UHGV virus genome: UHGV-0371537
Direction: 5' to 3' (one strand)
Length of the DNA: 64,000 nt
From: a virus
A program made the translations under genes and the position numbers. Below the pieces are notes generated by a model. That model searched no databases. It saw nothing but the letters and a program-made list of their open reading frames with translations, and was not told the origin of the DNA. This document shows, one piece after another, positions 2,841-63,688 of the stretch (within the stretch, counting starts at the first letter, position 1; the number at the start of each line of letters is the position of its first letter).

Positions 2841-2848
2841 CTAAATAC
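2841..2848 (+). promoter_or_regulatory. candidate late promoter element (CTAAATAC) ahead of the scaffold gene
   Basis: CTAAATAC about 27 nt upstream of ATG 2875; resembles T4-family late -10 (TATAAATA / CTAAATA variant). Confidence 0.35.
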
Positions 2849-3785: not shown

Positions 3786-3838
3786 GAACTACTAAGTAAT
3801 TTCAACTTAACTGAATATCAATGTAAGGAATGAGCATC

Positions 3839-7732: not shown

Positions 7733-7758
7733 ATTTTAAATTTATTCAATAAACGGGG

Positions 7759-7786
7759 TTTACTTCTTCAATAAACCCCGTATACT
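7759..7786 (+). promoter_or_regulatory. early-type sigma70-like promoter (TTTACT-N16-TATACT)
   Basis: -35 TTTACT 7759-7764, -10 TATACT 7781-7786; embedded in a 10-bp inverted repeat (7753-7781); ahead of gene 7836. Confidence 0.5.
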
Positions 7787-7835
7787 TCATTCCATAAGCA
7801 GCACAACACTGACTCTGAAATGAAGGAACTACACC

Positions 7836-8974: not shown

Positions 8975-9015
8975 CCTGTCATAAATAATCTGAGTTCACA
9001 CAGCGGAGATACATC

Positions 9016-9186: not shown

Positions 9187-9195
9187 CTAAATACC
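9187..9195 (+). promoter_or_regulatory. candidate late promoter element (CTAAATACC)
   Basis: CTAAATACC about 27 nt upstream of ATG 9222; followed by GGTATTTTCTT-ATG context shared with the endolysin gene. Confidence 0.35.
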
Positions 9196-9221
9196 CCCAT
9201 CATCCATGGGGGTATTTTCTT
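9192..9221 (+). terminator. hairpin with T-run immediately ahead of gene 9222
   Basis: TACCCCCA / TGGGGGTA 8-bp stem then TTTTCTT; overlaps candidate late element and RBS region. Confidence 0.45.
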
Positions 9222-9950
9222 ATGAACGCACAGATCTATGACGCCCTTGAGCAGGGTAACGCATTTAACAATCCTCTCCCGTCCCTCAGCAGCACGTCAC
9301 AGGGTTTAATCACCAGTGGTAAGGCGACTACAGCTTCACTGGCTAACACAGGCGATACGCAAATCCAGGGCGCTCTGACGGCAGGTGGGCTTACCACAGC
9401 CAAACTGAACGAAGCAACCACTATGTTCAACTCTGCAGGTACGAGCCTCACCACCCTGAACAACTATGGTGACCAGACTGTCAGTGAAGCATATTCTCGG
9501 ATCGGGACTTCTGTTTCTTACAAATCTGGCCTGAAATCCATAGAGCGCGAGCCAACGAATTGTGATCTGATCAACAATGCATTCGGTGTCATTCAGACCC
9601 TTGGACGCCAGTGGATCGGTGCCATGGAGACCGCTCTCAGCACTGTCACGGCAAAAATGACCGAACTAGCCGAATTAGTAGCGCAGGGTGTGAGCGCAGG
9701 CCTGGCAAAGATCCAGGCGCTGGCTGCTGAGGTCACCGGGTACGTCAACACTGCCATAACTCAGGTCTCCCAGATAGCCCAGGATATTACGAGCGGTATC
9801 GCGGCAGAGCTAGCCCACATACAAGACATGGTTAGCAAGTGTCTGAACTTCTCATTTGCTAACGTCCTGTCTGAGTGGGCTAAAGATCTATGTGCTGGTG
9901 GTGTTATCAACAACATCGGTTCAGATAATCTCAAGAGTGCGCTGAAGTAA
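9222..9950 (+). CDS. hypothetical protein, Thr/Ala/Ser-rich (possibly structural)
   Basis: 242 aa; behind CTAAATACC element and GGTATTTTCTT-ATG context shared with the endolysin gene. Confidence 0.5.
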   Translation: MNAQIYDALEQGNAFNNPLPSLSSTSQGLITSGKATTASLANTGDTQIQGALTAGGLTTAKLNEATTMFNSAGTSLTTLNNYGDQTVSEAYSRIGTSVSYKSGLKSIEREPTNCDLINNAFGVIQTLGRQWIGAMETALSTVTAKMTELAELVAQGVSAGLAKIQALAAEVTGYVNTAITQVSQIAQDITSGIAAELAHIQDMVSKCLNFSFANVLSEWAKDLCAGGVINNIGSDNLKSALK

Positions 9951-11626: not shown

Positions 11627-12372
11627 TGGCATCTCTCCAGGCTCTCAGAAAGCTGAACGACTTCGAAAATCGTCACTACACATTCCAGCAGTATGAACTC
11701 CCATACAAAGAACTGGAGTGTGTGACGACGGAGAATGGTCGACATTATGTGTCTCCGACTGGCGTCAAACTCACGTCTGTCACAACGATGCTGGGTCGAA
11801 CCGGAGACCATGAATGGCTCGAAGCCTGGAGGGAGAAGTTGGGCGCAGAGGCCGCCGATCTTGAGACCATGCGTTGTGCGGAACGTGGGGAGAAGCTGCA
11901 TCTTGCGTGTGAATTGTATTTGAAGAACCGCCCAATGAAAGAAGTGCTCGAGGCGGCTGGTGAATACATGTTCATGTTCAAGCAACTCTTCCCATACCTG
12001 AACAAGATGACCAAGATCTATGCTCAGGAGATTCCATTATATAGCGAAGTCCTTGGCCTCGCTGGGCGCGTAGACCTCATCGGGGTGTATGAGGGCAAAC
12101 CAGCCATAATCGACTTCAAGACCTCCAATGTAATGAAGACTCGGGGTATGATTGAGGACTACAGCATCCAGCTGTGTCTATACTCAGTCATGTTCCAACA
12201 GATGTTCGGCGTGAAGATCACCCGGTTGATAAACGTCATCGCCAACGAATCCTCTTTGAACCCAACTATCATCGAGTTCCATCGTGATGACATCCTGAGC
12301 AAGATGTTTGAGCGTGTCCGCCTGTACCATCGCATGGATAAAGAACAGAACGGAGTCTGGGCGAACCACTAA
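11623..12372 (+). CDS. PD-(D/E)XK family nuclease (RecB/Cas4-like fold)
   Basis: 249 aa; GRVDLIGVYEGKPAIIDFKTS matches D...(E/D)xK nuclease core; ATGA start/stop overlap with uvsY-like gene. Confidence 0.5.
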   Translation: MMASLQALRKLNDFENRHYTFQQYELPYKELECVTTENGRHYVSPTGVKLTSVTTMLGRTGDHEWLEAWREKLGAEAADLETMRCAERGEKLHLACELYLKNRPMKEVLEAAGEYMFMFKQLFPYLNKMTKIYAQEIPLYSEVLGLAGRVDLIGVYEGKPAIIDFKTSNVMKTRGMIEDYSIQLCLYSVMFQQMFGVKITRLINVIANESSLNPTIIEFHRDDILSKMFERVRLYHRMDKEQNGVWANH

Positions 12373-12377
12373 ATACC
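12369..12377 (+). promoter_or_regulatory. candidate late promoter element (CTAAATACC) ahead of uvsW
   Basis: CTAAATACC about 24 nt upstream of ATG 12401. Confidence 0.35.
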
Positions 12378-12400
12378 CCATATATCTTGGGAGATTTTGT

Positions 12401-13909
12401 ATGGCAGACGTTCAGATTGTTAAGGTTAACGAAGTCCGCATGCGTTGCATCGCAGATCTTTCTATCAGGGAAGAGCTGAACGATTACTTCAAATTCGAAG
12501 ACCCCAATTACACACCAAATCCATTCTCGAAATGGGATGGAATCGTTCGCCTTTTCACCAAGTCGTCCGGCCTCATCGATATCGGTCTCCTGTTCGAGGT
12601 TTTTAAATTCTGTAAGCATCACGGATACACAGTTGAATTGGACCCGGCGCTGAAGTACATACAGGACATCCCTGATGAAGAGATCTATGAATTCATCAAC
12701 AGCCTACACGCCAAAGTACGTACAGAAAATCATGAGTACATCGATGCGATCACCCGTGATTACCAGTTCGACACGATAGCCAAGGCGATGCGTCAAACCA
12801 GATGCGTCTGCGAACTGGCTACGAGTGCCGGGAAGTCCTTTGTTCTGTATGTCATGGCGCGGTACTACAGGCAACGCAGAGAAGCCCTAGAAAGCAATCT
12901 GAGGACGCTTATCGTGGTGCCGTCAATCCACCTGGTTACACAGCTGTACGACAACTTCGAAGAATACTCCCACGGCACTGACTGGAAGCCAGTTGTCCAC
13001 ACTCAGCTGATCTTTGAGGGGGCAACCAAGAACATCACCAAGCCGATTGTCATCAGTACCTGGCAGGGCATACAAGACCAACCGAAGGAGTGGTTCCACC
13101 AGTTTGGCGACATCGTTGTGGATGAAGTACATACATCCAAGTCCGAGAAGCTGTCCTACATCCTCAACAATTGTATCTACGCCGACCAGCGTCTGGGCGT
13201 GACGGGTACGCTGGCAAACACCAAAGTCGCTGGGCTTCAGGTGGTGGCTCACTTCGGCACTTATCACAAGATCATCACGGCTCGCGACCTTATCAATCTT
13301 GGGTACGCCACTGACATCAAGGTCAAGATGATCGAGCTGAAGCACACCATCGCTGACGCAATGACTCTTGACGGGGAGTACAGCAAGGAAATTGAATATC
13401 TTATCACCCATCAGTCGCGAAACGAAGTGATTGCGAAGATGGCGCTGAACCTCAAGGGGAATGTTGCTGTTATGTTCGAGCGTATTGACGCCCACATGAT
13501 GGTAGTGTATGAGATGCTGAGCGCAGTAAAGCCAAACGTGTTTGTCATCAACGGTGAAGTGAAGATCGAAGATCGTCGACGCATTCAGAAAGCGATGGAA
13601 GATGGCGAGGATATCACGTTGCTGGCTTCTTACGGGACAATGCAGCAGGGTGTTTCAATCAAGAAGTTGCATCACCTGGTACTGGCCCACCCGAGCAAGT
13701 CATATATCCGTGTCATACAGACATTGGGTCGTCTGATGCGTCAGCACTCCTCTAAGGATGTGGCATGGATCTGGGACTTAGTCGACAATGCGTCGTATAA
13801 AGGATCCCAGAACCACGCTGTGAGGCATTCGCAAGAGCGATACAAGTTCTATCTGTCTGAGCGCCACCCAGTAGAATTCATGAAAGTGGCGCTCGGTAAT
13901 CACGATTGA
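12401..13909 (+). CDS. uvsW: UvsW-like SF2 DNA helicase
   Basis: Aligns to recalled T4 UvsW: ELATSAGKSFVLYVMARYY, WQGIQDQPKEWFHQFGDIVVDEVH, HHLVLAHPSKSYIRVIQTLGRLMR; start at ATG 12401 (GGGAGA RBS). Confidence 0.85.
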   Translation: MADVQIVKVNEVRMRCIADLSIREELNDYFKFEDPNYTPNPFSKWDGIVRLFTKSSGLIDIGLLFEVFKFCKHHGYTVELDPALKYIQDIPDEEIYEFINSLHAKVRTENHEYIDAITRDYQFDTIAKAMRQTRCVCELATSAGKSFVLYVMARYYRQRREALESNLRTLIVVPSIHLVTQLYDNFEEYSHGTDWKPVVHTQLIFEGATKNITKPIVISTWQGIQDQPKEWFHQFGDIVVDEVHTSKSEKLSYILNNCIYADQRLGVTGTLANTKVAGLQVVAHFGTYHKIITARDLINLGYATDIKVKMIELKHTIADAMTLDGEYSKEIEYLITHQSRNEVIAKMALNLKGNVAVMFERIDAHMMVVYEMLSAVKPNVFVINGEVKIEDRRRIQKAMEDGEDITLLASYGTMQQGVSIKKLHHLVLAHPSKSYIRVIQTLGRLMRQHSSKDVAWIWDLVDNASYKGSQNHAVRHSQERYKFYLSERHPVEFMKVALGNHD

Positions 13910-14620: not shown

Positions 14621-15289
14621 ATGCAAGAGATCACTCTCTCCGAACGTACACTTCAGTTGCTGGCCAACTTTGAGACCATCAACCCTTCTATCGTTCTGAC
14701 ACCGGGTAAAATGCTGCGCAGCATCAACGATTCTTCTACTGTGATTGCCGTGGCGCAGATCGAAGAAGACTTCCCGTTTGAGTTCCCTATCCTGGACCTG
14801 ACAAAGCTCCTGGCCATCCAGCGCCTGCCTTCCTTCAAAGGCGGTAAAGCCGAATTCCATCAGGACTACATCCTGCTGAAAGGTGAAAGCTCTCAGTTGC
14901 AGTTCTGGCGCTCTGCGAAGGAACTCACTGTTGTCCCGGCTGACACCATCGAACTGCCGTCTGTCGACTTCGAAGCGATCATCACTCCAGAAAAGATGAA
15001 AGAACTGACCCGCGCCTGTTCTACCCTCGGCCACAAGACCGTGCGCCTGGTTGCTCAGGGTGGCAAAACTCGCTTGGTTGCAACTACCACTACCCTGGAC
15101 AACTCTAACAACTACACCGTTGAGCTGGGTGAAACTGCTCTGCCGGACTTCGTCATGCCGCTGGACGTTGCCAACCTGAAGATGATCGAAGGCAACTATA
15201 CTCTGCGCGCCTGTGCAGAACTGCAGATGGTCAACTTCCAGTCCTCCGACGCGACGATCAATTACTTCGTCGGCGCACAGATTGAGTAA
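14621..15289 (+). CDS. gp45: sliding clamp (T4 gp45-like)
   Basis: 222 aa; N-terminus TLQLLANFETINPSIVLTPGK parallels T4 gp45 (TALLKNFATINSGIMLKSGQ); followed by gp44/gp62/regA in T4 order. Confidence 0.8.
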   Translation: MQEITLSERTLQLLANFETINPSIVLTPGKMLRSINDSSTVIAVAQIEEDFPFEFPILDLTKLLAIQRLPSFKGGKAEFHQDYILLKGESSQLQFWRSAKELTVVPADTIELPSVDFEAIITPEKMKELTRACSTLGHKTVRLVAQGGKTRLVATTTTLDNSNNYTVELGETALPDFVMPLDVANLKMIEGNYTLRACAELQMVNFQSSDATINYFVGAQIE

Positions 15290-15314: not shown

Positions 15315-15318
15315 GTGT

Positions 15319-15340
15319 GGGCGGGGGTTTCCCGCCCATT
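15319..15340 (+). terminator. GC-rich hairpin after gp45
   Basis: GGCGGG-GGTTT-CCCGCC then CATTTG (weak T-run). Confidence 0.4.
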
Positions 15341-15368
15341 TGAAATGATTCTTCTACAAGAGGCTGAA

Positions 15369-16025
15369 ATGAGGAATCAACCGTTTGTATATCATTTGTT
15401 AGGAAAGGATGGTTCTTTCTATTTTGGTTCTAGAACGAAATTGGGTGCGCATCCTTTACAATTGTTCACTTCGTATTTCACTTCTTCACAAACGGTCAAG
15501 GAAATCATATCTAAGAAAGGTTCTGATTTCTTTGATGTGATATTTGTAGAATTGTTCGACTCTCCAGAAGATGCATATTGGAGAGAGCAGCAGTTGATTA
15601 GTGAGAACATTGATCACCCAAAATGTTTAAACAAATCATTTCAACCACTGGGTTGTGGTATCGCCAACGGTAGGTCAGCGGGACCCAAACATCACCGAGT
15701 TGGTGTCTCGAGTTGGTTGAAGGGTAAGTCTGGGAATCTTCATCCCATGCACGGAAGAACTGGTAAAAGCCACCCCGCCGCAGGAATAAAACCCTGGGAC
15801 ACCGGGGCTGCGCTGCTACACAACACCAGACCGATGTGGTTAAAGGCTGGGGTAGTGTATGATCACTGGGTTTCTACTGGTGATGGGTGCCATAGAATTG
15901 CCCGTTTGTTCTCTATCAAAGAGAACACCGCAACGAGTATGTTAAACAAATTCAAAGAGGGCTGGAACCCGTATGATGACGACGCTTGGGTTCTGTTCTG
16001 TAAACTATATCATGGAAATACATAA
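15369..16025 (+). CDS. GIY-YIG family homing endonuclease with NUMOD3-like repeats (seg-like)
   Basis: FVYHLLGKDGSFYFGSR (GIY-YIG-like), GKSGNLHPMHGRTGKSHPAAG (NUMOD3-like); inserted between gp45 and gp44; AAGAGG RBS. Confidence 0.65.
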   Translation: MRNQPFVYHLLGKDGSFYFGSRTKLGAHPLQLFTSYFTSSQTVKEIISKKGSDFFDVIFVELFDSPEDAYWREQQLISENIDHPKCLNKSFQPLGCGIANGRSAGPKHHRVGVSSWLKGKSGNLHPMHGRTGKSHPAAGIKPWDTGAALLHNTRPMWLKAGVVYDHWVSTGDGCHRIARLFSIKENTATSMLNKFKEGWNPYDDDAWVLFCKLYHGNT

Positions 16026-17018: not shown

Positions 17019-17441
17019 ATGGCCGCCCCTGGATTGTTCGATTATCTGTCTGCTCTGAACAGCAGCAAAGAGAACCTTCTGCAAACCGATGATCCGGAAG
17101 TGCAGAAGGGCTTCGACCCGTTCATGACGCGGCGTGGTCTCGCCCAGAGCAAAGACACTCTGGTGTTTGCGCAGCAGATGAATAAGCTGCATGCCACCAC
17201 TCCATGGATGCAATGGTCATACGCCTTTCATTCCATTCCAGCGCGTAAGCGTTATGACAAATGGTCTAAGAAAGGCGCTGTCGACCCTGATGTGAAGATG
17301 CTATCCGAGTATTTCTACATCAGCATGGAGAAGGCATCCGAGTACGTCCGTTTCTTGCCGCAGGAAGTCCTGGCTGAGATACGCGAAAAGATGGGACGTA
17401 CTGAGCTAAACGCCAAAGCGAAACCGCGCAAGGCTAAGTAG
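17019..17441 (+). CDS. gp62: clamp loader small subunit (T4 gp62-like)
   Basis: 140 aa; IPARKRYDKWSKK resembles T4 gp62 VPRGKRYGKWAKL; between gp44 and regA as in T4. Confidence 0.6.
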   Translation: MAAPGLFDYLSALNSSKENLLQTDDPEVQKGFDPFMTRRGLAQSKDTLVFAQQMNKLHATTPWMQWSYAFHSIPARKRYDKWSKKGAVDPDVKMLSEYFYISMEKASEYVRFLPQEVLAEIREKMGRTELNAKAKPRKAK

Positions 17442-20093: not shown

Positions 20094-20123
20094 CTTACTT
20101 TGTGAGTTAAGAAAGTATATTAT

Positions 20124-20152
20124 AACAGGAACTTTCATTTGGAGTTCCTGTT
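20124..20152 (+). promoter_or_regulatory. RBS-sequestering hairpin ahead of the HNH homing endonuclease
   Basis: Perfect 10-bp inverted repeat AACAGGAACT / AGTTCCTGTT (loop 9 nt) encloses the GGAG Shine-Dalgarno and ends at ATG 20153. Confidence 0.5.
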
Positions 20153-21082
20153 ATGTTTTACGAATTATTGATTTCTAAAGGCGGTAAACCGCATTTTATC
20201 AAGAAGTATTTGAGGATGGTTCAATCTTTCAAATATTCTGATAGTGACTACACTGAATTACACCACATCCTTCCCAAGAGCATGTTCCCTGAATATTCTA
20301 AAGATAAGATAAATTTGGTTCGATTAACAGGCAGACAACATTATCTTGTCCATGTATGCTTGGCCTTGGCTTTCCCAAACACGAGAATGGTGTATGCTGT
20401 TGTAGCTATGAGAAAGGGAGGAAGAAGAAATAAATCAGGTATTCGGTTTAATTCTCATTTGTATGAAAGTTTCAGAATTAAATTCAGCGAACAACTATCT
20501 TTACAATGGAAAGGGGTTTCTCGGTTTGTGGGTAAAGACAACCCAATGTATGGGAGAAGAGGAAAGAATAATCCCCAATATGGGTATAAGAGAACTCCAG
20601 AGCAAGTCAAGAAAATTACCAAAGGATTGATGAAAATCCATGAAAGGATGGCTTCTGATCCGGAATATAAAAGAGAAGTTTTAGAGCAGCGTCGTACCAA
20701 TACGGATTTAAAGCAATTTTCTGAGCGTTCCCGCCAAGCAAAACTCGGTGAACTCAATCCTAATTATGGGAAGGACTTAACCAACTCTTTCACACCGGAA
20801 CAACGCGCCAAACAGAAAGAAAACGCTCAGAAAGGCATGTTGGCTAAGATGCCTTGGGAGAAGGGTAAATGGAACCCCGACAATGACGTATATTGGGAGA
20901 AAGCTGATCAATTCCTTGAAGCCCTGAATACGATGAAACGTTCAGAAGCCCTCTTGTTCGTGTATGGAACAAAAGATCTGAAGGCGTTTAATGCCACCAG
21001 TGGGATAATCGAACGTTTCAATAAAGGCTGGGAACCATTAAAATGCGTAAAATGGTTAAAAAGATATAAGGGTGAAAAATGA
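20153..21082 (+). CDS. HNH family homing endonuclease with NUMOD repeats (mob-like)
   Basis: ELHHILPKS...NLVRLTGRQHY (HNH), GKDNPMYGRRGKNNPQYG and NPNYGK NUMOD-like repeats; RBS inside a 10-bp hairpin. Confidence 0.75.
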   Translation: MFYELLISKGGKPHFIKKYLRMVQSFKYSDSDYTELHHILPKSMFPEYSKDKINLVRLTGRQHYLVHVCLALAFPNTRMVYAVVAMRKGGRRNKSGIRFNSHLYESFRIKFSEQLSLQWKGVSRFVGKDNPMYGRRGKNNPQYGYKRTPEQVKKITKGLMKIHERMASDPEYKREVLEQRRTNTDLKQFSERSRQAKLGELNPNYGKDLTNSFTPEQRAKQKENAQKGMLAKMPWEKGKWNPDNDVYWEKADQFLEALNTMKRSEALLFVYGTKDLKAFNATSGIIERFNKGWEPLKCVKWLKRYKGEK

Positions 21083-21303
21083 GCTGGAAATTGTTCAAAC
21101 TGTGTAAAGCGACTGATGAGTTTCTTCTGAAAGCCCGTATGGAAGGACGTCTCGTGTACACTCCTTACCCAGGCACTATTCGGTTTTGTAGTACGTTGAG
21201 GAAACAGAAATCAGTTTCTGGGCCAAGACGTTTGTTGATGCAGGGGATGCTGGCATACAACTCCGGTGATACTCGGCCTTGTGACGGTGGTAAGATCGTC
21301 TGA
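21079..21303 (+). CDS. hypothetical small protein, 4-nt overlap with the HNH gene
   Basis: 74-aa ORF starting in ATGA overlap with the homing endonuclease stop; may travel with the endonuclease. Confidence 0.35.
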   Translation: MSWKLFKLCKATDEFLLKARMEGRLVYTPYPGTIRFCSTLRKQKSVSGPRRLLMQGMLAYNSGDTRPCDGGKIV

Positions 21304-21422: not shown

Positions 21423-23441
21423 ATGTCAGAATTTAAGCCCTTCGCAGTAGCTGTTAACAACAACGTGCTGGCCATGTCAGCAACTGGTCTGTTCATGACC
21501 AACATCGATAAAGATGCTCTGTGGGATCTGTATCTGTCTTCTTTCCCTGCTGGCACCAACCCGCTCTACCGTGAGCGTACCGAGCACGACTGCACCTGCT
21601 GCAAACAATTCATCCGTAATATCGGTGGTGTGGTTACCATCGACACTGACCTGAACGTGATCTCTATCTGGGATAACATTCAGCTGGGCAACGAATACGA
21701 CGTTGTCGCTGCGGCGCTGTCTGCGTATGTCAAGCAACACGCAATCGTCGACGTGTACTTCAACGATACCAAGAAAGTCGGTGTTGAGTCGAATCACGAA
21801 ATGAAAGACGGTAATGTCCGCACCTACAACCACTTCCACACCGACCTGCTGCCCAGCTATGTTCTGCGGGCTGATGCCATCGCTTCTAAGAAGGGTGAAA
21901 TCCGTCAGGCGATTGAAGTGTTTGAGCGCGGCCTGCGTGAACTGTCTCTGGAATCGGCTGAAATCGTTCTGGAATTGATCGACCAGAATTCTCTGTATCG
22001 CGGTGAAGAGCACAAGGCGGCAGTGCAGGCGTTCGTGGTGAACAAGACCCTGTACGAACAGACTGCAGAAGAGAAACGCGCTCTGTGGGCTTGGCGCACT
22101 GGCTATCATGCGAACGGTCATACCCCTCACGGCATTCGTAATACCGTGATTGGCTCTCTGTTGGTAGACCTCAACGAAGGCCGCGACCTGGAAACCGCCG
22201 TCAAGTCTTTCGAAGCCAAAGTAGCTCCGACGAACTACAAGCGCCCAACCGCGCTGGTAACTAAGTCGATGATCGAAAATGCGCAGAAAGAAGTTGAAGC
22301 GCTGGGTCTGACCGATTCACTGGGTCGCCGTTATGCCGTGTATGACGATCTGACCATCAACAACGTTCTGTTTGCCGACCTGGCAGCACAGAAGAAGATG
22401 GACCCGTTTGCTCAGCTGGCGTCTGAAGTGAAGACTCCGACCAAGTCCCTGGACAAGGTTGAAGAGATCACCATCGACGACTTCCTGGCGAACGTGCTGC
22501 CGAAAGCGCACTCAATGGAAGTGCTGGTTGAGAACTCTCACACTGGCAACCTGATGTCCCTGATCGCTCCGGCTACGGCAGGTGCTCCTAACCTGTTCAA
22601 GTGGAACAACGGCTTCAGCTGGTCATACAACGGTGAAGTGGCCGACTCCATCAAAGAGCGCGTGAAGACAGCAGGTGGCAACGTTGACGGTTTCCTCCGT
22701 GTGTCGCTGGCGTGGCATAACAACGACGACCTGGATCTGAGCCTGAACGATCCTTTACACAATCATGTGTATTACCACAACCGTCGCTCAGCAACTGGCG
22801 CAACCCTGGATATCGACATGAACGGTATGGACGGCATTGACCCGAATCGCCGCCCGGTGGAGAACATCTTCTTCAGCGATGAGCGCAAGCTGCGTAATGG
22901 TCTGTACGAGTTCTATGTCACTAACTTCAGCCAGCGTGAAACCTGTGATATGGGCTTCGAAATCGAAGTCGAATACAAAGGCCAGACCAAGCGTTTTTCG
23001 CATCCTGGCCTGAAGCACAAAGATCGCACTCTGGCTGTTGTGATTGATGTCCGCGCCGGACAGGTGGTAGACATCCGCTCTACTCTGAAAGACGATGCTC
23101 GTTCTCAGGAAATCTGGGGCATCAAGACCTCGGTCTTCCAGAAGGTACAGCTGGTTCTGAACTCACCAAACCATTGGGACGGCGAGCAGACGGGCAACAA
23201 GCACGTGTTCTTCATCCTGGAAGGTTGTGCTAACCCTGTCGGCACTCGTGGCTTCTATAACGAATATCTGAAGCCGGAACTGGATAAACACCGTAAGGTT
23301 TTTGAAATGTTAGGTAGTAAGATGAAAGTACAGCCAAGCACTGAGCAGCTGTCCGGTCTGGGCTTCTCTACCACCCAACGCAACCACGTGTTCGTGAAGG
23401 TGAGCGGCTCGTTCAACCGCACTGTAAAAGTTGTGTTCTAA
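21423..23441 (+). CDS. large hypothetical protein (672 aa), unassigned
   Basis: AGGA RBS; no Walker, vWA or nucleotidyltransferase motif seen; first gene of a + strand block running to the NAD cassette. Confidence 0.6.
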   Translation: MSEFKPFAVAVNNNVLAMSATGLFMTNIDKDALWDLYLSSFPAGTNPLYRERTEHDCTCCKQFIRNIGGVVTIDTDLNVISIWDNIQLGNEYDVVAAALSAYVKQHAIVDVYFNDTKKVGVESNHEMKDGNVRTYNHFHTDLLPSYVLRADAIASKKGEIRQAIEVFERGLRELSLESAEIVLELIDQNSLYRGEEHKAAVQAFVVNKTLYEQTAEEKRALWAWRTGYHANGHTPHGIRNTVIGSLLVDLNEGRDLETAVKSFEAKVAPTNYKRPTALVTKSMIENAQKEVEALGLTDSLGRRYAVYDDLTINNVLFADLAAQKKMDPFAQLASEVKTPTKSLDKVEEITIDDFLANVLPKAHSMEVLVENSHTGNLMSLIAPATAGAPNLFKWNNGFSWSYNGEVADSIKERVKTAGGNVDGFLRVSLAWHNNDDLDLSLNDPLHNHVYYHNRRSATGATLDIDMNGMDGIDPNRRPVENIFFSDERKLRNGLYEFYVTNFSQRETCDMGFEIEVEYKGQTKRFSHPGLKHKDRTLAVVIDVRAGQVVDIRSTLKDDARSQEIWGIKTSVFQKVQLVLNSPNHWDGEQTGNKHVFFILEGCANPVGTRGFYNEYLKPELDKHRKVFEMLGSKMKVQPSTEQLSGLGFSTTQRNHVFVKVSGSFNRTVKVVF

Positions 23442-31260: not shown

Positions 31261-31347
31261 ATGGACTGGGGAATTATTCTTCAATGTGTTGCTACTTTCG
31301 TCTTGGTGTTCCTGATTGTGTTCTGTTTTGGTTTCAGGATGCGCTAA
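31261..31347 (+). CDS. very small hydrophobic peptide
   Basis: 28 aa MDWGIILQCVATFVLVFLIVFCFGFRMR, single TM-like segment; start 1 nt after upstream stop; speculative. Confidence 0.3.
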   Translation: MDWGIILQCVATFVLVFLIVFCFGFRMR

Positions 31348-31380
31348 CTAAGGGATAATCCATATCCCGAGGTGAATCTC

Positions 31381-35666: not shown

Positions 35667-37385
35667 GTGACAGCATTCAATCAATATACCAAGGCGCTTG
35701 ATGGCGTCGGACCAGTTAGCATAGACCGCATCAAGTCTCTTGCCACTGAGTTCTTCCCATACGACACCGCCAACCCCGGCCAGATGGAGTGCATCGTTGA
35801 AGCCGTTGATGCCCTTGTGAATAAGAAATTCAAACACGTGATCATCGAGGCTCCAACTGGTGTGGGCAAATCCCTCATTGGCACGACCATCCATAACGTG
35901 CTTCGCCATCTGGTTCTTGAGCGCAACCCATATGGTCAGTTCCGCACGTCTATCACGACGCCGACCAAAGGGCTACAGGATCAGTATGCGGCGGAGAAAG
36001 CCGTGGCGATAGACATCCTGAAGGGTAAGAAAAACTATCGTTGCCATATCAGTCCCGACCTGTACTACAACGCCATTCAGTGTCGTATGGCATGCCGTGA
36101 CGGCCACTGTAGTAAGAATCGTTGCCCATATGTTCAGGCTCGTCGTCTTTGGACGGATATCTCCTCCCTGCGCTGCACCAACGCCGCCATGATGGTGGAG
36201 ATGTGCACGACGATCTGTATGAAGCCCGAAAACCGCGCCGATATGCTGATCCTTGACGAGTGCCATAAGATGCCCTCTACGCTCCTAGAGCACACGATCA
36301 TGGAATACAGTATAAATGCTGTAAGAGGGTTGCTTACAATCCCCGAGGGAGTGCCTATCGTGGAGACCATCACGGATATCATCAGGCGCACAGAAAACTA
36401 TGAGCTGGGCAAGCTGTACTCACTAACAGGTGAGATGCATGCGATCTTTGACGACCTGCATGACAAGGTTGAAGCCCTCTTAGAAACCCTTGAGGAACTG
36501 GTAGAAGACGAGCGCCTGACGGAAGCTCAGGTGATGAAGCTGTCTGACATCATTGACACCCTTCACAACCTCAGCGACTACTGTGGCATCATGGGTCAGA
36601 CCAACGCCAGCACCTTCATCGTTCAGGAAAAAGACAAGGGTATGATCCAGTTCAAGCCTGTCATCGCATCTGATGTGTCTCAGTTCGGCCTGTTCCGCAA
36701 GGGCGATTACCATGTTCACATGTCAGCGACCATCTGCGGGATTGAGTCCTATGCTCGTTCTCTGGGTATCCGTGAGGGCGAATATCACAAGATTCAAATC
36801 GGCAACCCCATCCCGATTGAGAATCGTAAGGTCAACTACATGCCCGTCATGAAGATGTCGGCCAACATGGGCGACTACGAGATGAAGAAGCTGGCCGAGT
36901 ACGTGGATGAGATCATTGCATTCCATCCAGGACAGTCTGGCATCATTCACACAGTCAGTTATGACCGCGCTCTGGCTCTACAGAAGTTCAGCAAGTACCG
37001 GAATATGATTCACGTTCCTCGTACTCGTAAGGCTCTGATGGATATCATGGAGCAGGCGTTCAGGACGAAGACGCCTTGTGTCATCGCCAGTCCGGCTATG
37101 GAAGAGGGGTATGACTTCAAAGGCGATTACAGCCGCTTCCAGATCCTGATCAAGGTTCCATACGATTACCTTGGTGACCCGCTTGTGGCTCATGTAAACA
37201 GTGTAGACCCTTCGGCATACTTCAGGATGGCGGTACTGCGTATCGTGCAGATGTGCGGGCGCTCGGTCAGGGGTGTGAATGACTGGGCTGCGACATACAT
37301 CCTTGATTCTTCATTTGAATCATTAATGATGCGCAACCCAGAGTTCTTCCCCGCATGGTTCACCGATGCTGTGTTCGAGGTTTAG
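35667..37385 (+). CDS. DinG/XPD-like SF2 DNA helicase with Fe-S cluster domain
   Basis: Walker A EAPTGVGKS, DEAH-type LILDECHK, four-Cys cluster CHISPD...CRMACRDGHCSKNRCPY; GTG start with AGGAGG RBS. Confidence 0.7.
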   Translation: MTAFNQYTKALDGVGPVSIDRIKSLATEFFPYDTANPGQMECIVEAVDALVNKKFKHVIIEAPTGVGKSLIGTTIHNVLRHLVLERNPYGQFRTSITTPTKGLQDQYAAEKAVAIDILKGKKNYRCHISPDLYYNAIQCRMACRDGHCSKNRCPYVQARRLWTDISSLRCTNAAMMVEMCTTICMKPENRADMLILDECHKMPSTLLEHTIMEYSINAVRGLLTIPEGVPIVETITDIIRRTENYELGKLYSLTGEMHAIFDDLHDKVEALLETLEELVEDERLTEAQVMKLSDIIDTLHNLSDYCGIMGQTNASTFIVQEKDKGMIQFKPVIASDVSQFGLFRKGDYHVHMSATICGIESYARSLGIREGEYHKIQIGNPIPIENRKVNYMPVMKMSANMGDYEMKKLAEYVDEIIAFHPGQSGIIHTVSYDRALALQKFSKYRNMIHVPRTRKALMDIMEQAFRTKTPCVIASPAMEEGYDFKGDYSRFQILIKVPYDYLGDPLVAHVNSVDPSAYFRMAVLRIVQMCGRSVRGVNDWAATYILDSSFESLMMRNPEFFPAWFTDAVFEV

Positions 37386-38733: not shown

Positions 38734-39462
38734 ATGGGTATGAATTATGTTGATCGTGGCGAGAATGTCGTCAAATATTTTACGGACGAAGATAACGAGC
38801 GTGTCATCAGTATCCTTCGTGACTGGATCCCCGCCCGTAAGAAAGCACTGGCCGAAGGAACAAGACTTCCAAAGATCCCCAACTATGTTGCTGTCCAAGT
38901 CCAGCGCATCATCACCAAGATGAGCACCCGCTACAATTATCGTGACTATCCCTTCCGTGAGGACATGGTCTCTGAAGCCGTCGTGAACATCCTTCGTTAC
39001 CTCCACACGTTTGACGTCGGCCATGTGGGCAAGAAAGGCAAAATCAATTTCTTTTCCTGGGTGACCATGTGTGCTGATCGTTCCTTCGCTCGCAAACTGA
39101 ACATTGAAGAAGAACACACTTACATCAAGTTGCGCTCCTTTGAAGAGGCAGGCGGTTTCGCAGGGCTGGCTGATGACCCAGATTTCCAACAAGAGGTCTT
39201 CGTTGATGCTACTGGGATTGGTATGGACTTCCGCGAGCGCATCGGTAACTTCGAAAACAAGAAGGACGCCCAAAGACAGCGGGAACGCGAAAAGGTAGAG
39301 ACCGCCCGAGCCGCTGAATCGAACAAAAAGATAGCGAAAGGCATACTTCAATACATGTCTCAGGGTAAGAATACCCCAACAGCGCAGGCCGAAGACGATT
39401 CAGATCAGGACTTCGGTAATACCCAATTCGATCTGGAAGAAAACGAAGGAGAAACAGAATAA
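38734..39462 (+). CDS. gp55: late-transcription sigma factor (T4 gp55-like)
   Basis: Pattern similarity to recalled T4 gp55 (RYNYRDYPFREDMVSEAVVNILRYLHTFD vs [31 protein letters not shown]); upstream of gp47/gp46 as in T4. Confidence 0.6.
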   Translation: MGMNYVDRGENVVKYFTDEDNERVISILRDWIPARKKALAEGTRLPKIPNYVAVQVQRIITKMSTRYNYRDYPFREDMVSEAVVNILRYLHTFDVGHVGKKGKINFFSWVTMCADRSFARKLNIEEEHTYIKLRSFEEAGGFAGLADDPDFQQEVFVDATGIGMDFRERIGNFENKKDAQRQREREKVETARAAESNKKIAKGILQYMSQGKNTPTAQAEDDSDQDFGNTQFDLEENEGETE

Positions 39463-43673: not shown

Positions 43674-43772
43674 GGCTGAAGGGCACTAAATATCACGTGC
43701 CCTTTATCTTTTAACCCCTGTCAGGAGGCTCAATCGAGCTGCAAGTCGACAAACCACATAAGGAACGCCATC

Positions 43773-45025: not shown

Positions 45026-45040
45026 AAATAATTCAATAAA

Positions 45041-45065
45041 AGGGGCTTTCGCCCCTTTACTTCTT
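45041..45065 (+). terminator. rho-independent terminator after gene 44387, abutting an early promoter
   Basis: AGGGGC-TTTC-GCCCCT then TTACTTCTT. Confidence 0.6.
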
Positions 45066-45084
45066 CAATATCCTTCCCTATACT
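45056..45084 (+). promoter_or_regulatory. early-type sigma70-like promoter (TTTACT-N17-TATACT)
   Basis: -35 TTTACT 45056-45061, -10 TATACT 45079-45084; downstream TTCATTCCATAAGCAG block also found at 7787-7802. Confidence 0.55.
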
Positions 45085-45132
45085 TCATTCCATAAGCAGT
45101 ACGACACCAACTTGAAACGAAGGAACTATATT

Positions 45133-45530: not shown

Positions 45531-45576
45531 CGCTAATTAAGGAAAACCGCACCGATTTATTATCAGGAGAATTACA

Positions 45577-47565: not shown

Positions 47566-47637
47566 AACAAGCTGAACTTGAACAGAATAAAGCCCCTCCG
47601 GGGGCTAATTACATCTAAATCCCCGAGGAGAGATCCA

Positions 47638-48876: not shown

Positions 48877-48965
48877 TTTCGTTCTCCAGTTATATTATTC
48901 TATATAGTACCTCATGGACCCATTAACACTAAATACTAGATGGTTCACAATACAGGAAACAAATC

Positions 48966-51249: not shown

Positions 51250-51343
51250 AACTTTTTACTTCACATCACCCTCCCTCCAGGCCTCGTCGAATGAGGCCTT
51301 TTAAAATACTTCAAAAATATTTTAAAAATTTATTGAAAAAGAC

Positions 51344-51372
51344 TTTACTCTTCAATAATGATGCACTATTAT
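51344..51372 (+). promoter_or_regulatory. early-type sigma70-like promoter (TTTACT-N17-TATTAT)
   Basis: -35 TTTACT 51344-51349, -10 TATTAT 51367-51372; in an AT-rich spacer ahead of gene 51446. Confidence 0.5.
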
Positions 51373-51939: not shown

Positions 51940-51965
51940 AGGGGGAGGAAACTCCCCTCCTTATT
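51940..51965 (+). terminator. terminator-like hairpin after gene 51446
   Basis: GGGGAG-GAAA-CTCCCC with T-run (GATTTTT) about 12 nt downstream. Confidence 0.45.
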
Positions 51966-52504: not shown

Positions 52505-52514
52505 TTTAAATACC
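52505..52514 (+). promoter_or_regulatory. candidate late promoter element (TTTAAATACC) ahead of the endolysin gene
   Basis: TTAAATACC about 29 nt upstream of ATG 52543; GGAGGTATTTTCTT-ATG context. Confidence 0.35.
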
Positions 52515-52542
52515 TTCGCATTCATTGCGGAGGTATTTTCTT

Positions 52543-53337
52543 ATGGCCATTCTAAAACTTGGCAACCGTGGCACTGAAGTGAAGGCACTTCAGGATAGCC
52601 TCAACAAAATCGGCTTCACCCTCGTCGCCGACGGCATCTTTGGTAAGGCAACAGAGAACGCTGTCAAGACTGTTCAGGCGGGTGCGGGGCTTGTCATCGA
52701 CGGTATCGTGGGTCCAAAGACCTCCTATGCTATTCGCAACGCTGGAGACGCCCATCAAGATCACCTGACCGAGGCTGACCTTATCGATGCGGCTAATCAG
52801 CTTGGAGTTGATCTCGCCTCTGTAAAGGCGGTCAACCAGGTGGAATCCCGTGGCACTGGCTTCACCAAGTCAGGTAAGATCAAGACATTGTTCGAACGCC
52901 ACATCATGTACAAGAAGCTCATGGCGAAGTTCGGCCAGGCTCGGGCGAATGCTATAGGGCAGATGTACCCGACGTTGGTCAGTCCTTCTGCAGGTGGGTA
53001 CACGGGCGGCGATGCAGAACTGGATCGACTTCATGCGGCCATCAACATCGACGAGGATTGTGCGTACGAGAGTGCCTCATACGGTCTCTTCCAGATCATG
53101 GGCTTCAACTGCCAGGTCTGTGGGTATGCCAATGCCAAGGAGATGTTCAATGACTTCCTGACAGGCGAACGTGCTCATCTGATGGCATTCGTGAAGTTCA
53201 TCAAGGCCGATGCCAAGCTCTGGCAGGCTCTGAAGGACAAGAACTGGGCTGAGTTTGCGCGGCGCTATAATGGTCCGGCGTATGCCAAGAACCAGTACGA
53301 CACGAAGCTCGCTGCTGCATACAAGAGTTTCAGTTAA
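52543..53337 (+). CDS. modular endolysin: N-terminal peptidoglycan-binding domain plus C-terminal muramidase-like domain
   Basis: N-terminus LKLGNRGTEVKALQ...DGIFG...DGIVGP (PG-binding repeat); C-terminus ESASYGLFQIMGFN; GGAGG RBS. Confidence 0.75.
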   Translation: MAILKLGNRGTEVKALQDSLNKIGFTLVADGIFGKATENAVKTVQAGAGLVIDGIVGPKTSYAIRNAGDAHQDHLTEADLIDAANQLGVDLASVKAVNQVESRGTGFTKSGKIKTLFERHIMYKKLMAKFGQARANAIGQMYPTLVSPSAGGYTGGDAELDRLHAAINIDEDCAYESASYGLFQIMGFNCQVCGYANAKEMFNDFLTGERAHLMAFVKFIKADAKLWQALKDKNWAEFARRYNGPAYAKNQYDTKLAAAYKSFS

Positions 53338-54353: not shown

Positions 54354-55013
54354 ATGAATTATCAAAATATCTATGACTCTCTGATACAAAGAGCCAAGAC
54401 CCGTTCATTGGTTGGTTATTCTGAAACCCACCATATTATCCCTAGATGTATGGGAGGGAAAGATGACAAACATAATCTGGTGGAGTTGACACCAGAAGAA
54501 CATTATTTAGCACATCAATTGTTAGTCAAAATATATCCCAAAAATTTCAAATTAGCATTTGCAGCTAATGCTATGTGCGTAAACAATGAATTCTCCGGTA
54601 GATCTTGTAACAAATTATTCGGTTGGTTGCGGAGAAAACTTTCTCATTCCAATAAACAGATGTACAAAGACAACCCTAATTTGAGGAAAATTCGTTCCGA
54701 TCAAATGAAACAGACACATGTAAAGTATTCTCATTTGCGGGAAATACAGTCTAAACGTTTGAAGGAAAACAATATATGCGTGATAAAACAACCTTGGGAA
54801 AGTAACCATGCCACCAAAGAGTCTTTGGATATATGGAAACGCGCCGACGAATATTATGATTGGTGGTTGTGCAACCAAAAAGGTTGCACGTTCATGGCGA
54901 AAGCGTTTGGGTTCAAAAACAAGACGACTCCGCATTTCACAATGATTAATAAATTTAAATCTGGGTGGAATCCCAAAGCCGACCCAGAGTGGTTAGAGTT
55001 TGTAAGTCAATAA
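54354..55013 (+). CDS. HNH family homing endonuclease (mob-like)
   Basis: YSETHHIIPRCMGGKDDKHNLVELTPEEHYLAH (HNH); inserted between phoH and nrdA; C-terminal NKFKSGWNP motif shared with two other endonucleases. Confidence 0.75.
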   Translation: MNYQNIYDSLIQRAKTRSLVGYSETHHIIPRCMGGKDDKHNLVELTPEEHYLAHQLLVKIYPKNFKLAFAANAMCVNNEFSGRSCNKLFGWLRRKLSHSNKQMYKDNPNLRKIRSDQMKQTHVKYSHLREIQSKRLKENNICVIKQPWESNHATKESLDIWKRADEYYDWWLCNQKGCTFMAKAFGFKNKTTPHFTMINKFKSGWNPKADPEWLEFVSQ

Positions 55014-58875: not shown

Positions 58876-59337
58876 ATGACAAACAAAGTGCTCACCAACC
58901 CACTGCACAACTTCGGTTACATTCAGCTTCCTCTGGTGATTGATACCCTATACGCTGATGACAAAGAGGAGATCTGTTGGTCTCCAACCGCTCTGATTGA
59001 ACGCGAAATCTTCAAGTCTGTTGTTGATGTTATGTTCCGTATCGGTCGCAATGCACCTCTGGTCTACCTCGGCAAAGCAACTGAACTGAAGACAAGCCAC
59101 AACGAACGCTTCCTGCGCATTGATACTACCGGGTGCTCCCAGCAAGACTTCAACACACTGCGCAATTATGTTCTGGTCAACCGCCCGGTATCCCAGCATC
59201 GTCCTTACCTGACGTCAATGCACATAGACAGTTTCATCACTGACGTACACCTGCAGGCTGAAACCCTCCATGAAGAGGAAACAGGCCGAGCTATCGACAC
59301 TGTCTTAAATATGGTTGTGATCACCCTCGCGGAGTAG
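58876..59337 (+). CDS. hypothetical protein behind an early-type promoter
   Basis: 153 aa from ATG 58876 (GGAACTATATC-ATG); promoter TTTACT-N17-TATACT upstream. Confidence 0.45.
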   Translation: MTNKVLTNPLHNFGYIQLPLVIDTLYADDKEEICWSPTALIEREIFKSVVDVMFRIGRNAPLVYLGKATELKTSHNERFLRIDTTGCSQQDFNTLRNYVLVNRPVSQHRPYLTSMHIDSFITDVHLQAETLHEEETGRAIDTVLNMVVITLAE

Positions 59338-61830: not shown

Positions 61831-61840
61831 GGTATTTATG
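61831..61840 (-). promoter_or_regulatory. candidate late promoter element (CATAAATACC on minus strand) ahead of the gp5-like gene
   Basis: Reverse complement of 61831-61840 is CATAAATACC, about 33 nt upstream of minus-strand ATG 61798. Confidence 0.4.
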
Positions 61841-62307: not shown

Positions 62308-63114
62308 TTAAATGAAAATTTCATTAATGCTATTGAACTCAATAGGATGCTCTTTACCACATTTAGGGCATTTGATTTTGTTCTTGTAGTGGATGCGAGG
62401 AATTTTATGGAAGAAGTTCTTCGTAATATCCTCGATAACATCCGATTCAAGATTGTCTTTTACCCATTCAATGAAAGCGTCTTTGACACGACGACGCTCA
62501 ATAGATTCTTCGGGCGTGATGCCCGGTTCATCCGGGTTCTCTACACGCCATACTTGTCCATCGTCATCATACAGACAATCAATGAAAGTCGCCAGCATTT
62601 CTTCAATGCTAGATGATTCAGACAGAGCCGTGGCATCGGCAAAGGAGGGCTGGCGCATCTTCAGATGATAACCACCCGGCAGGTCAAAGATTTCTTTAAA
62701 CCCTTCCTTCGCTACACACTTGACATTCAGTAGAGGGATAGGCAGCACCAGTTCCTGCTTACAAGGAACCATGGTTTTCTTCTCGATTCCTTCCCCGACG
62801 TCTGTCGTTTCTTCGATTTGGTTGTTGCATTCATAGCGGATTTTCATCAATTCGCCAATAGCGATGCTACGCATGCGGATGAACACTTCTTCAACAACAC
62901 CGATCGGCAGTTTGTTAAACGGTGCCCCGGCTTCAACACAATCTGCAAACAGGCTTTCCATAATCGCAGCACGCTCTTCAACCGGAGTCTGAGGATCCGC
63001 GACCTGTAGCATGAGAGTTTGTTGCCCGGCAGTGAAAGCGCGATATCTGATGACACTCGGCCAAAAATCGCTTTTGAATGTCTTTTCTGTTCTGGGCAAT
63101 GAAGGTAATTTCAT
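62308..63114 (-). CDS. hypothetical protein, possibly baseplate/tail-associated, with C-terminal zinc ribbon
   Basis: 268 aa from ATG 63114 (GGAG RBS 8 nt upstream); C-terminal CPKCGKEH; upstream of gp5-like gene on same strand. Confidence 0.5.
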   Translation of the reverse strand: MKLPSLPRTEKTFKSDFWPSVIRYRAFTAGQQTLMLQVADPQTPVEERAAIMESLFADCVEAGAPFNKLPIGVVEEVFIRMRSIAIGELMKIRYECNNQIEETTDVGEGIEKKTMVPCKQELVLPIPLLNVKCVAKEGFKEIFDLPGGYHLKMRQPSFADATALSESSSIEEMLATFIDCLYDDDGQVWRVENPDEPGITPEESIERRRVKDAFIEWVKDNLESDVIEDITKNFFHKIPRIHYKNKIKCPKCGKEHPIEFNSINEIFI

Positions 63115-63163
63115 AATGTATCTCCATGGTATATTGTAAGGATATTTATAACGAGGAATGAAA

Positions 63164-63688
63164 ATGCGCGGATTCTGTTTTAGCGAAATTGGCAAAGAAC
63201 TGTCGATACAATATCCAGACCCCAATACAGACTTCTTTATTTTCTTGTCTGACTATGCCCAGAAAGAGAATATTAGTCACATTGCGATGAAGTACGAAGA
63301 TTATAAATTTTGTCGATTGGGTGTTAAGGATCTCTTGCGCTTCGGACTGTGTGTCATTATCGTAGATCAAACCTATAGCCCCATTGATGATGAAGAAGTC
63401 CTTCCTGTTTTCGTACATCGCAATATCAACACTCTGGATACACATTTTCCTGGGTGTGTGGTCGTTGGTGAGCTGGTTCCTTATTTCCACCGTTTGCGGA
63501 AGTTGGAACAAATTAAAAGTTATTTTCAAGATGGCGTGGGTCAATATAAGATGAACGTCCTCGGTAGTGGATGGAAAGTGTTGTCAACAGCTGGTGGCAC
63601 CGACTATATCAAAATGCGGGTCTATGGTTATGACGTGGACCGCGATTATGAACTGGAGAAAAGTAATGCAAAAAGAAAACGCCGTTGA
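63164..63688 (+). CDS. hypothetical protein
   Basis: 174 aa, divergent from the minus-strand gene at 63114; GAGGA RBS. Confidence 0.45.
   Translation: MRGFCFSEIGKELSIQYPDPNTDFFIFLSDYAQKENISHIAMKYEDYKFCRLGVKDLLRFGLCVIIVDQTYSPIDDEEVLPVFVHRNINTLDTHFPGCVVVGELVPYFHRLRKLEQIKSYFQDGVGQYKMNVLGSGWKVLSTAGGTDYIKMRVYGYDVDRDYELEKSNAKRKRR

Follow-up and report, generated by a model that had tools for sequence, protein, structure and literature searches.

Candidate gp55-type late promoters nested in Shine-Dalgarno-pairing hairpins before the endolysin and DUF7217 genes of an Ackermannviridae phage

The endolysin and DUF7217 leaders

The virus genome UHGV-0371537 was analysed over a stretch of 64,000 nucleotides (nt), referred to here as the window. 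Its endolysin gene (52543..53337, + strand) encodes a protein with the Pfam domains PG_binding_1 and N-acetylmuramidase (PF11860), and is preceded by a putative late-promoter element that overlaps an RNA hairpin. The same arrangement is found before a second gene, 9222..9950 (+), whose function is unassigned and whose product is a DUF7217 protein (PF23854, E=6e-98; phrog_2114). The DNA of the window is 90-94% identical to that of the Shigella phages ChubbyThor and Ag3 and to other Ackermannviridae, subfamily Aglimvirinae. Gene calls were carried over from the ChubbyThor annotation by tblastn, with several starts corrected. The full genome of Serratia phage 3M (genus Miltonvirus) was assembled and served as the distant comparison; its endolysin and DUF7217 protein are 61% and 52% identical to those of the window. 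The part of the Ag3 proteomics supplement that was available gives no indication of whether the DUF7217 protein is a virion protein.

The -10 element of the endolysin leader, TTTAAATA (52505..52512, +), is part of TTTAAATACC at 52505-52514, and its TAAATA ends 30 nt before the ATG at 52543. The element is unchanged in 17 relatives and is present in 3M. The hairpin spans 52508..52538 (+), with a 5' arm AAATACCTTCGCA (52508-52520), a loop (52521-52525) and a 3' arm TGCGGAGGTATTT (52526-52538). Its stem of 13 base pairs (bp), one of them G.U, has a predicted energy of -18.0 kcal/mol (z of -6.0 to -6.6 compared with shuffles). The 3' arm carries the Shine-Dalgarno (SD) sequence GGAGG (52529-52533), which is 100% paired, and is followed by a U-rich TCTT and then by the ATG. 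The ChubbyThor endolysin is annotated from a TTG at 52525, a position inside the hairpin loop and without an SD. RefSeq Ag3 places the start at ATG 52543, 9 nt downstream of GGAGG; as judged from the sequence, this ATG is likely to be the start in place of TTG 52525.

The leader of the DUF7217 gene is built in the same way. A CTAAATA element (9187..9193, +), part of CTAAATACC at 9187-9195, ends 28 nt before the ATG at 9222. The hairpin (9189..9217, +) consists of a 5' arm AAATACCCCCAT (9189-9200), a loop (9201-9205) and a 3' arm ATGGGGGTATTT (9206-9217), which together give 12 bp at -17.2 kcal/mol (z=-6.6). An SD-like GGGGG (9208-9212) lies in the 3' arm and is again 100% paired, with TCTT and the ATG next in line. 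In both leaders, positions -15 to -5 are fully paired, and both hairpins still form when folded in a 146-nt context. Among 84 gene leaders in the window, they rank first (endolysin) and third (DUF7217) in stability.

The leader that ranks between them belongs to a homing endonuclease gene, orf309 (20153-21082; phrog_655). At 20121-20155 (+) it forms a 15-bp hairpin of -17.8 kcal/mol (z=-5.4) that pairs a GGAG Shine-Dalgarno and the AUG. This hairpin has no TAAATA in its 5' arm; it is reminiscent of T4 I-TevI, whose ribosome site is sequestered.

The two promoter elements and the two stems share sequence: the 5' arm 52508-52520 overlaps TAAATA at 52507-52512, and the 5' arm 9189-9200 overlaps TAAATA at 9188-9193. 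This overlap bears on a leader sequence that a previous, sequence-only reading had described as a conserved initiation region shared by the two genes. The sequence GGTATTTTCTTATG does occur exactly twice in the window (9211-9224 and 52532-52545), while 0.3 occurrences were expected in shuffles even with two mismatches allowed. It is, however, no element in its own right: GGTATTT is reverse-complementary to AAATACC in the promoter, and a single hairpin has the promoter as one arm and the SD region as the other. GG(A/G)GGTATTT thus precedes the ATG of the endolysin and DUF7217 genes because it is the complement of AAATACC(T/C)CC.

A transcript initiated at the nested element is predicted to escape the fold. 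By the geometry of T4 late promoters, in which the last A lies at -6 (PMC1524935), the predicted transcription start sites (TSSs) are at ~52518 and ~9199, and late RNAs would keep only 2-3 nt of the 5' arm. When these shortened transcripts were folded, no significant structure was predicted (z about 0). Of the other promoter-like leaders in the window, that of uvsW has only a weak, degenerate hairpin remnant (-9.4 kcal/mol over 12360-12420, z=+0.4), and the remaining sites have no such hairpin. A search against Rfam at gathering thresholds gave no match in the window.

Conservation of the stems

The endolysin hairpin was found in all 16 Ackermannviridae loci recovered from IMG/VR, as well as in 3M. 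In 3M the upper stem is wholly replaced, from CCTTCGCA/TGCGGAGG to CCCTCTG/CAGAGGG. Across the alignment 97.4% of the stem cells are paired and three pairs are changed on both sides, a combination matched by 4 of 500 shuffles; slid registers gave 44-58% pairing. This count covers the 11 in-register pairs only, as MAFFT misplaced the register of the Serratia upper stem. Some of the endolysin variants are paired only via G.U. The DUF7217 stem is 100% paired in the distinct sequences of nine relatives, and the Kuttervirus leaders of this gene carry the canonical TATAAATA.

A third leader of this type lies just outside the window, before a Holliday-junction resolvase gene. Its hairpin was predicted in 20/20 loci recovered, at -15.7 to -20.9 kcal/mol, and in 3M at -18.8. 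The stem is 100% paired with two double changes and no disruptions, while the loop varies; 18 of 500 shuffles did as well. Agtrevirus resolvase stems have one inserted G-C pair, and these rows were excluded from the pair count. In ChubbyThor the leader reads GTAAATAGCCCATA...TATGGGCTATTTAC-ATG (about 36990-37037, corresponding to roughly 150-250 nt past the end of the window) and folds at -21 kcal/mol; no other promoter-in-hairpin in the family is as strong. In total, 3M carries six promoter-SD hairpins, including those of gp5, which has no U-tract, and of gp031, with a poor one. Separate genes carry separate upper-stem sequences. The alignments suggest that the hairpin structure is maintained across five genera by compensatory change, in a small sample in which most pairs are invariant.

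The arms are also near-perfect inverted repeats in DNA and could act at that level, as a protein-binding palindrome or a cruciform, rather than as RNA. The substitutions speak otherwise. Several variants pair only through G.U, for instance by T.G at stem position 9 (window) or by T.G together with G.T (locus L006). Such wobbles are compatible with RNA from the given strand, but with neither DNA nor the opposite strand. In addition, the upper stem changes freely while pairing is kept, unlike a sequence-specific binding site. The DNA-level palindrome was rejected on the basis of the wobbles and the freely varying upper stem, and we regard it as scarcely credible.

Candidate late-promoter elements across the window and their presumed sigma factor

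The sequence-only reading had listed five sites resembling late-promoter -10 elements. All five exist at or adjoining the coordinates given, with TAAATA ending 25-34 nt before a start codon. Besides the endolysin and DUF7217 sites, they comprise CTAAATA before the prohead scaffold gene (2841..2847, +; 27 nt before ATG 2875), CTAAATA before uvsW (12369..12375, +; within CTAAATACC at 12369-12377, 25 nt before ATG 12401) and ATAAATA before the gp5 baseplate hub/lysozyme gene (61833..61839, -; within CATAAATACC at 61840-61831, 34 nt before ATG 61798). The scaffold site stands, although its sequence at 2841-2849 is CTAAATACT and does not end in ACC as had been read. It has no hairpin, and the scaffold leader is almost identical in 3M.

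Four exact sites had not been listed. Candidate late promoters were found as ATAAATA before hyp181 (8981..8987, +, with TAAATA from 8982; ATG 9016), which is in ChubbyThor too but not in 3M; as CTAAATA before a DUF5856 gene (48929..48935, +, TAAATA from 48930; ATG 48966); as TTAAATA before orf129 (59305..59311, +, TAAATA from 59306; ATG 59343), which is conserved in ChubbyThor; and as ATAAATA before the baseplate hub gene (63143..63149, -, TAAATA at 63143-63148), 28 nt before ATG 63114 and present in 3M. The hub open reading frame (ORF) spans 62308-63225 (-). Since its phrog_150 match begins only at residue 37 of this longer ORF, the true start is probably ATG 63114 and the ORF is annotated too long in relatives. 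This ATG has a GGAGA Shine-Dalgarno in addition to the TAAATA, and starting there removes the overlap with the divergent hyp107 gene (63158-63688).

Next, we compared the number and placement of TAAATA with random expectation. In total, TAAATA occurs 19 times in the window, which is not above the 14.4 +/- 4 expected. Its position, however, is strongly restricted to the zone before starts. Eight of the 19 occurrences lie 20-40 nt upstream of a same-strand start, where 0.26 were expected (binomial P=8.6e-11), and in an unbiased scan TAAATA was the most enriched of all 4096 hexamers in that zone. The corrected hub start brings to 9 of 19 the occurrences with a same-strand start codon 25-34 nt downstream. 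The longer TAAATACC occurs four times (0.79 expected), a count that none of 100 shuffles reached. Pure chance placement was rejected (P about 1e-10).

The base preceding TAAATA at these sites is C, A or T, and G in 0/9. In 3M the promoter-like sites have C in 17 cases, A in 8, T in 5 and G in 0/30, while G precedes 8/31 of its non-promoter TAAATA sites. The motif is better written as NTAAATA, with N not G, than as the CTAAATACC that had been proposed; its reading as a late-promoter motif is supported. In 3M, about 30 of the 61 TAAATA sites precede a gene start by 20-41 nt, and the genes concerned are almost all structural or expected to be late. The virion genes include those for wedge, tail spikes, sheath, tube, portal, scaffold, major capsid protein, gp5, hub and homologs of gp48, gp54, gp2 and gp4; the non-virion genes are uvsW, the endolysin and the Holliday-junction resolvase. 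Six of the nine window sites are kept at the orthologous gene in 3M although the surrounding intergenic DNA has diverged, so the comparison with a related phage agrees with the late-promoter reading.

A G variant of the motif is placed in the same manner. Three of the five TAAGTA sites in the window lie 26-31 nt before starts, each as CTAAGTA (+): before hyp193 (1632-1638), the major capsid protein gene (3792..3798; 31 nt before ATG 3830) and regA (17434-17440). CTAAGTA is found at the same three genes in ChubbyThor, and the orthologous positions in 3M are TAAATA. For a promoter of the T4 type, one would not expect a G here in front of the gene that encodes the most abundant late protein. Taken together, 10 of 16 CTAA.TA sites are near starts. 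Of the other one-mismatch variants, TAATTA (2/12) and TAACTA (1/2) also occur near starts; none otherwise has a placement comparable to TAAATA. These three sites, gcTAATTA at 45534-45539 and 47606-47611 and gcTAACTA at 31345-31350 (+), lie 21-37 nt before hyp130, hyp129 and hyp151, and may be further degenerate late promoters or may be due to chance.

The presumed reader of the motif is encoded in the window. The gene at 38734..39462 (+) specifies a gp55-family late sigma factor of 242 amino acids, which matches phrog_234 ("late sigma transcription factor") at E=6e-51 over profile positions 5-178 of 181. This PHROG profile, which T4 gp55 hits at E=3e-69, is the sole link between the two proteins; the window sigma factor had no match in Pfam, in a PDB sequence search or in pairwise BLASTP against T4 gp55, which has 185 amino acids. 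A gp45-type sliding clamp, 100% identical to the annotated ChubbyThor clamp, is encoded at 14621..15289 (+). In T4, the gp45 clamp is a co-activator of late transcription. In ChubbyThor and 3M, the annotation places a gp33-like gene ("late promoter transcription accessory") shortly past the end of the window and outside it. On these annotations, the late system would resemble that of T4-like phages.

The elements themselves also resemble T4-type promoters. T4 late promoters have TATAAATA at -13 to -6, and those of Aeromonas phage Aeh1 have CTAAATA (PMC1524935). As with gp55 promoters, the window sites are lone -10-type elements without a -35, 25-34 nt before late-gene start codons, and they share with Aeh1 a C-rich position before TAAATA. 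They differ from T4 in that the first T of the octamer is not conserved in the lineage of the window, and in the CTAAGTA before the major capsid protein gene.

The TAAATA sites might instead be -10 boxes for the host's ordinary sigma-70, or no more than A+T-rich stretches between genes without a role specific to late infection. Intergenic DNA is A+T-richer than coding DNA, TAAATA matches TATAAT at three of six positions, and the total count of 19 is not above expectation. On the other hand, no sigma-70 -35/-10 pair was called at the NTAAATA sites in the scanned regions, the invariant last T of the -10 box is missing, and the one-mismatch variants lack comparable placement apart from the three named above. 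Moreover, the genes that follow the sites include those for the scaffold, gp5, the hub and the endolysin as well as uvsW, and in 3M nearly all structural genes, while the bona fide early-type promoters of the window look different (TTTACT-16-TATACT). For want of a -35 partner and with the wrong last base, this candidate was rejected, and we consider it very improbable.

Position, sigma factor, recurrence in 3M and the literature motif thus support NTAAATA (N = C, A or T) as gp55-type late promoter elements; promoter activity and TSS positions are predictions from these data. The late-promoter level of interpretation is not new, and was reached in part for Ag3 and LIMEstone1. The gp5 site was predicted as Porf084 in Ag3 (phiSboM-AG3; PMC3121705) and 33 late promoters were predicted in LIMEstone1 (PMC3296691).

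Several homing-endonuclease-like genes (15315-16025, 20153-21303, 5269-6741 and 54354-55013, all +) are unlike ChubbyThor in presence or position. Examples are an extra ORF between the clamp and clamp-loader genes, and orf309 with orf74 before gene 21423.

A proposed timing switch of the T4 gene e type

We consider it likely that the NTAAATA elements are gp55-type late promoters which, before the endolysin and DUF7217 genes, are nested in SD-pairing hairpins that silence transcripts arriving from upstream. The host RNA polymerase with the phage's gp55-family sigma factor would read NTAAATA as in T4. Before these two genes, and before the resolvase gene in relatives, the promoter would sit in the 5' arm of the hairpin. 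Early RNAs from same-strand promoters upstream would hold both arms, fold and not be translated; since a U-rich tract follows the stem, they would probably also terminate in part. Late RNAs would begin about 6 nt after TAAATA. Lacking the 5' arm, they would have an open ribosome site, and termination would be impossible. The sequence, the positional statistics, the predicted folds, the conservation with compensatory changes and the layout common to T4 genes e and 49 were all observed here, while we infer the read-through from upstream and the block of translation.

The genes upstream are compatible with such read-through. Each hairpin comes after a run of small genes on its own strand, and sigma-70-like promoters stand at the head of these runs. 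Two overlapping early promoter candidates of this type (51333..51372, +), upstream of hyp123-hyp121, read towards the endolysin hairpin and correspond to the early promoter Porf100 of the Ag3 paper (PMC3121705). Another, TTTACT-16-TATACT (7759..7786, +), lies upstream of hyp184 and reads towards the DUF7217 hairpin. Between these promoters and the hairpins, one weak terminator-like site was called before the endolysin (51941-51956) and none before DUF7217. Read-through into both hairpins is plausible because of the same-strand promoters upstream and the presence of at most one weak terminator-like site in between. The TTTACT-16-TATACT promoter is held in a repeated element of ~70 nt, ATTCAATAAA-GGGG...TTTACTTCTTCAATA...TATACTTCATTCCATAAGCAG, found at 7747-7815 and 45027-45100 (+) upstream of hyp184 and hyp131. 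This element is probably a reused early promoter cassette.

The nested design itself is already known from T4, where the e, soc, 49 and I-TevI genes have inhibitory leader structures (PMC3014915). In the case of gene e, early read-through RNAs fold and are poorly translated, whereas RNAs from the late promoter lack the 5' strand of the stem and are translated; the late promoter inside the SD-sequestering hairpin was described by McPheeters et al. 1986, as reviewed in PMC3014915. We fetched and folded the leaders of T4 genes e and 49. The gene e leader (TATAAATACCTTCTATAAATACTTAGGAGGTATTATG) forms TATAAATACCTTC...GGAGGTATT-ATG at -14.9 kcal/mol, and the window endolysin leader (TTTAAATACCTTCGCAttcatTGCGGAGGTATTTtcttATG) forms TTTAAATACCTTCGCA...TGCGGAGGTATTT-TCTT-ATG at -18.0. 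The layout is the same and the arms have almost the same sequence, with ACCTTC/GGAGGT pairing and the same U.G wobble. In both phages, the downstream gene is a lysis muramidase. The enzymes, however, belong to separate families (a T4 lysozyme fold versus PG_binding_1 with PF11860). T4 has a second TATAAATA in its loop while the window endolysin has one promoter. A U-rich tract comes after the window stem, which may act as a terminator as well. Function was shown in T4 only.

The leader of T4 gene 49, which encodes endonuclease VII, has a counterpart in the resolvase leader. The T4 leader (AATAAATACCCTTATCtatttaaGGTAAGGGTTTATTATG; TAAATACCCTTATC...GGTAAGGGTTTATT-ATG, with AATAAATACCCTTATC in its 5' part) folds at -16.3 kcal/mol, compared with -15.7 to -20.9 for CTAAATACCCATAAC...GTTATGGGTATTT-ATG in the Ackermannviridae. 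Both genes are Holliday-junction resolvases, although the T4 enzyme is endonuclease VII and the Ackermannviridae enzyme, just outside the window, is annotated as RuvC-like.

Several observations weigh against the proposed switch. The hairpin is present in only 2 of about 12 promoter leaders of the window. Its conservation is partly explained without structure: the arms are also constrained as promoter and SD, 10/12 pairs of the DUF7217 stem and 11/13 of the resolvase stem are invariant, and all double changes in the endolysin stem come from one sequence, that of 3M. The gene directly upstream of DUF7217, hyp181, has its own candidate late promoter, and therefore the DUF7217 hairpin does not separate early from late transcription alone. 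No mapped transcript ends (5' or 3') from an Ackermannviridae phage were found in the searchable literature. Two further points concern termination. For Ag3, ccttcgcattcattgcggaggtattttcttat has been annotated as the terminator Torf098, at -12.2 kcal/mol (PMC3121705); and the G+C-rich upper stems (CCTTCGCA/TGCGGAGG for the endolysin, CCCCCAT/ATGGGGG for DUF7217) are followed in both cases by TATTTTCTT, which fits an intrinsic terminator. SD occlusion may thus be secondary to termination.

Carried to its end, this argument makes the hairpins nothing but rho-independent terminators of the upstream early units. The late promoter would then be incidental, the SD pairing would have no translational role, and TAAATA would supply the A-tract of the terminator, with TATTT as its U-tract. 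In line with this, the 3M endolysin stem lost one pair (T.T) and gained a cleaner TTTTT run, and TAAATA also occurs in the loops of terminator-like hairpins, at 43676-43706 (+) in the window and in ChubbyThor. However, a consensus terminator scan called neither hairpin. The supposed A-tract is always exactly TAAATA, and its distance of 25-34 nt to the ATG is that of the promoter sites without a hairpin. The SD is paired even where the U-tract is poor or absent, as in 3M gp5 (...TCAGGGTgatcccATG), 3M gp031 (...GGGGTATcaaaATG) and T4 gene e (GGAGGTATTATGAAT), and T4 early transcripts are reported to reach into gene e (PMC3014915). Termination and SD occlusion are, moreover, not mutually exclusive. 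We therefore consider termination as the only role unlikely.

The U-rich spacer and the motif in terminator-like loops favour termination; the hairpins with a poor or absent U-tract and, by analogy, the T4 precedent favour a translational component. The two effects are inseparable by computation. The logic of a promoter within a hairpin nevertheless holds under both, because a transcript started inside the stem escapes either way.

Of the hairpins with TAAATA in the loop, the one in the window lies 80 nt before regB. That of ChubbyThor (~21790-21820) lies 30 nt before the DUF5856 gene, the same distance as the site at 48929-48935 in the window, and corresponds to Torf105 of Ag3. Such loops may be a second way to nest a late promoter, from which only RNAs started inside escape.

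What the present analysis adds is that the "conserved initiation region" is the promoter's complement and that, judged by its sequence, a second phage family probably has a switch of the T4 e/49 type. The Ag3 annotation (PMC3121705) already contained the gp5 promoter (Porf084), the endolysin hairpin (Torf098) and the upstream early promoter (Porf100). In the parts of the Ag3 and LIMEstone1 papers that were available (PMC3121705, PMC3296691), the endolysin hairpin is tied neither to the promoter nor to the SD, and the endolysin and DUF7217 promoters are not among the Ag3 examples shown. The searchable literature contained no description of a promoter-in-hairpin switch for Ackermannviridae. The published terminator Torf098 can be reread as a timing switch of the T4 gene e type on a lysis enzyme. 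The likely start codons of the endolysin (ATG 52543) and the baseplate hub (ATG 63114) are corrected, and a testable map of late transcription starts is provided for the Ackermannviridae, a family widely proposed for biocontrol.

We lean towards a broader reading, in which one module, with a gp55-type promoter in the 5' arm and the ribosome binding site in the 3' arm, has been maintained or re-invented in Straboviridae and Ackermannviridae. In both families it would stand before genes that do the same job with different protein families, a lysis muramidase and a Holliday-junction resolvase. If true, the ACC frequently seen after TAAATA would serve as an internal anti-SD mimic rather than belong to the promoter. 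There would be strong selection for a double lock, on transcription and on translation or termination, for proteins that are harmful when made early. The DUF7217 protein is flagged here for timing that appears to be under as tight a control as that of the endolysin and resolvase proteins, and would add a third candidate for a protein that must not be made early. The same design before a T4 muramidase and resolvase of different families would then be a regulatory logic that has outlived its genes.

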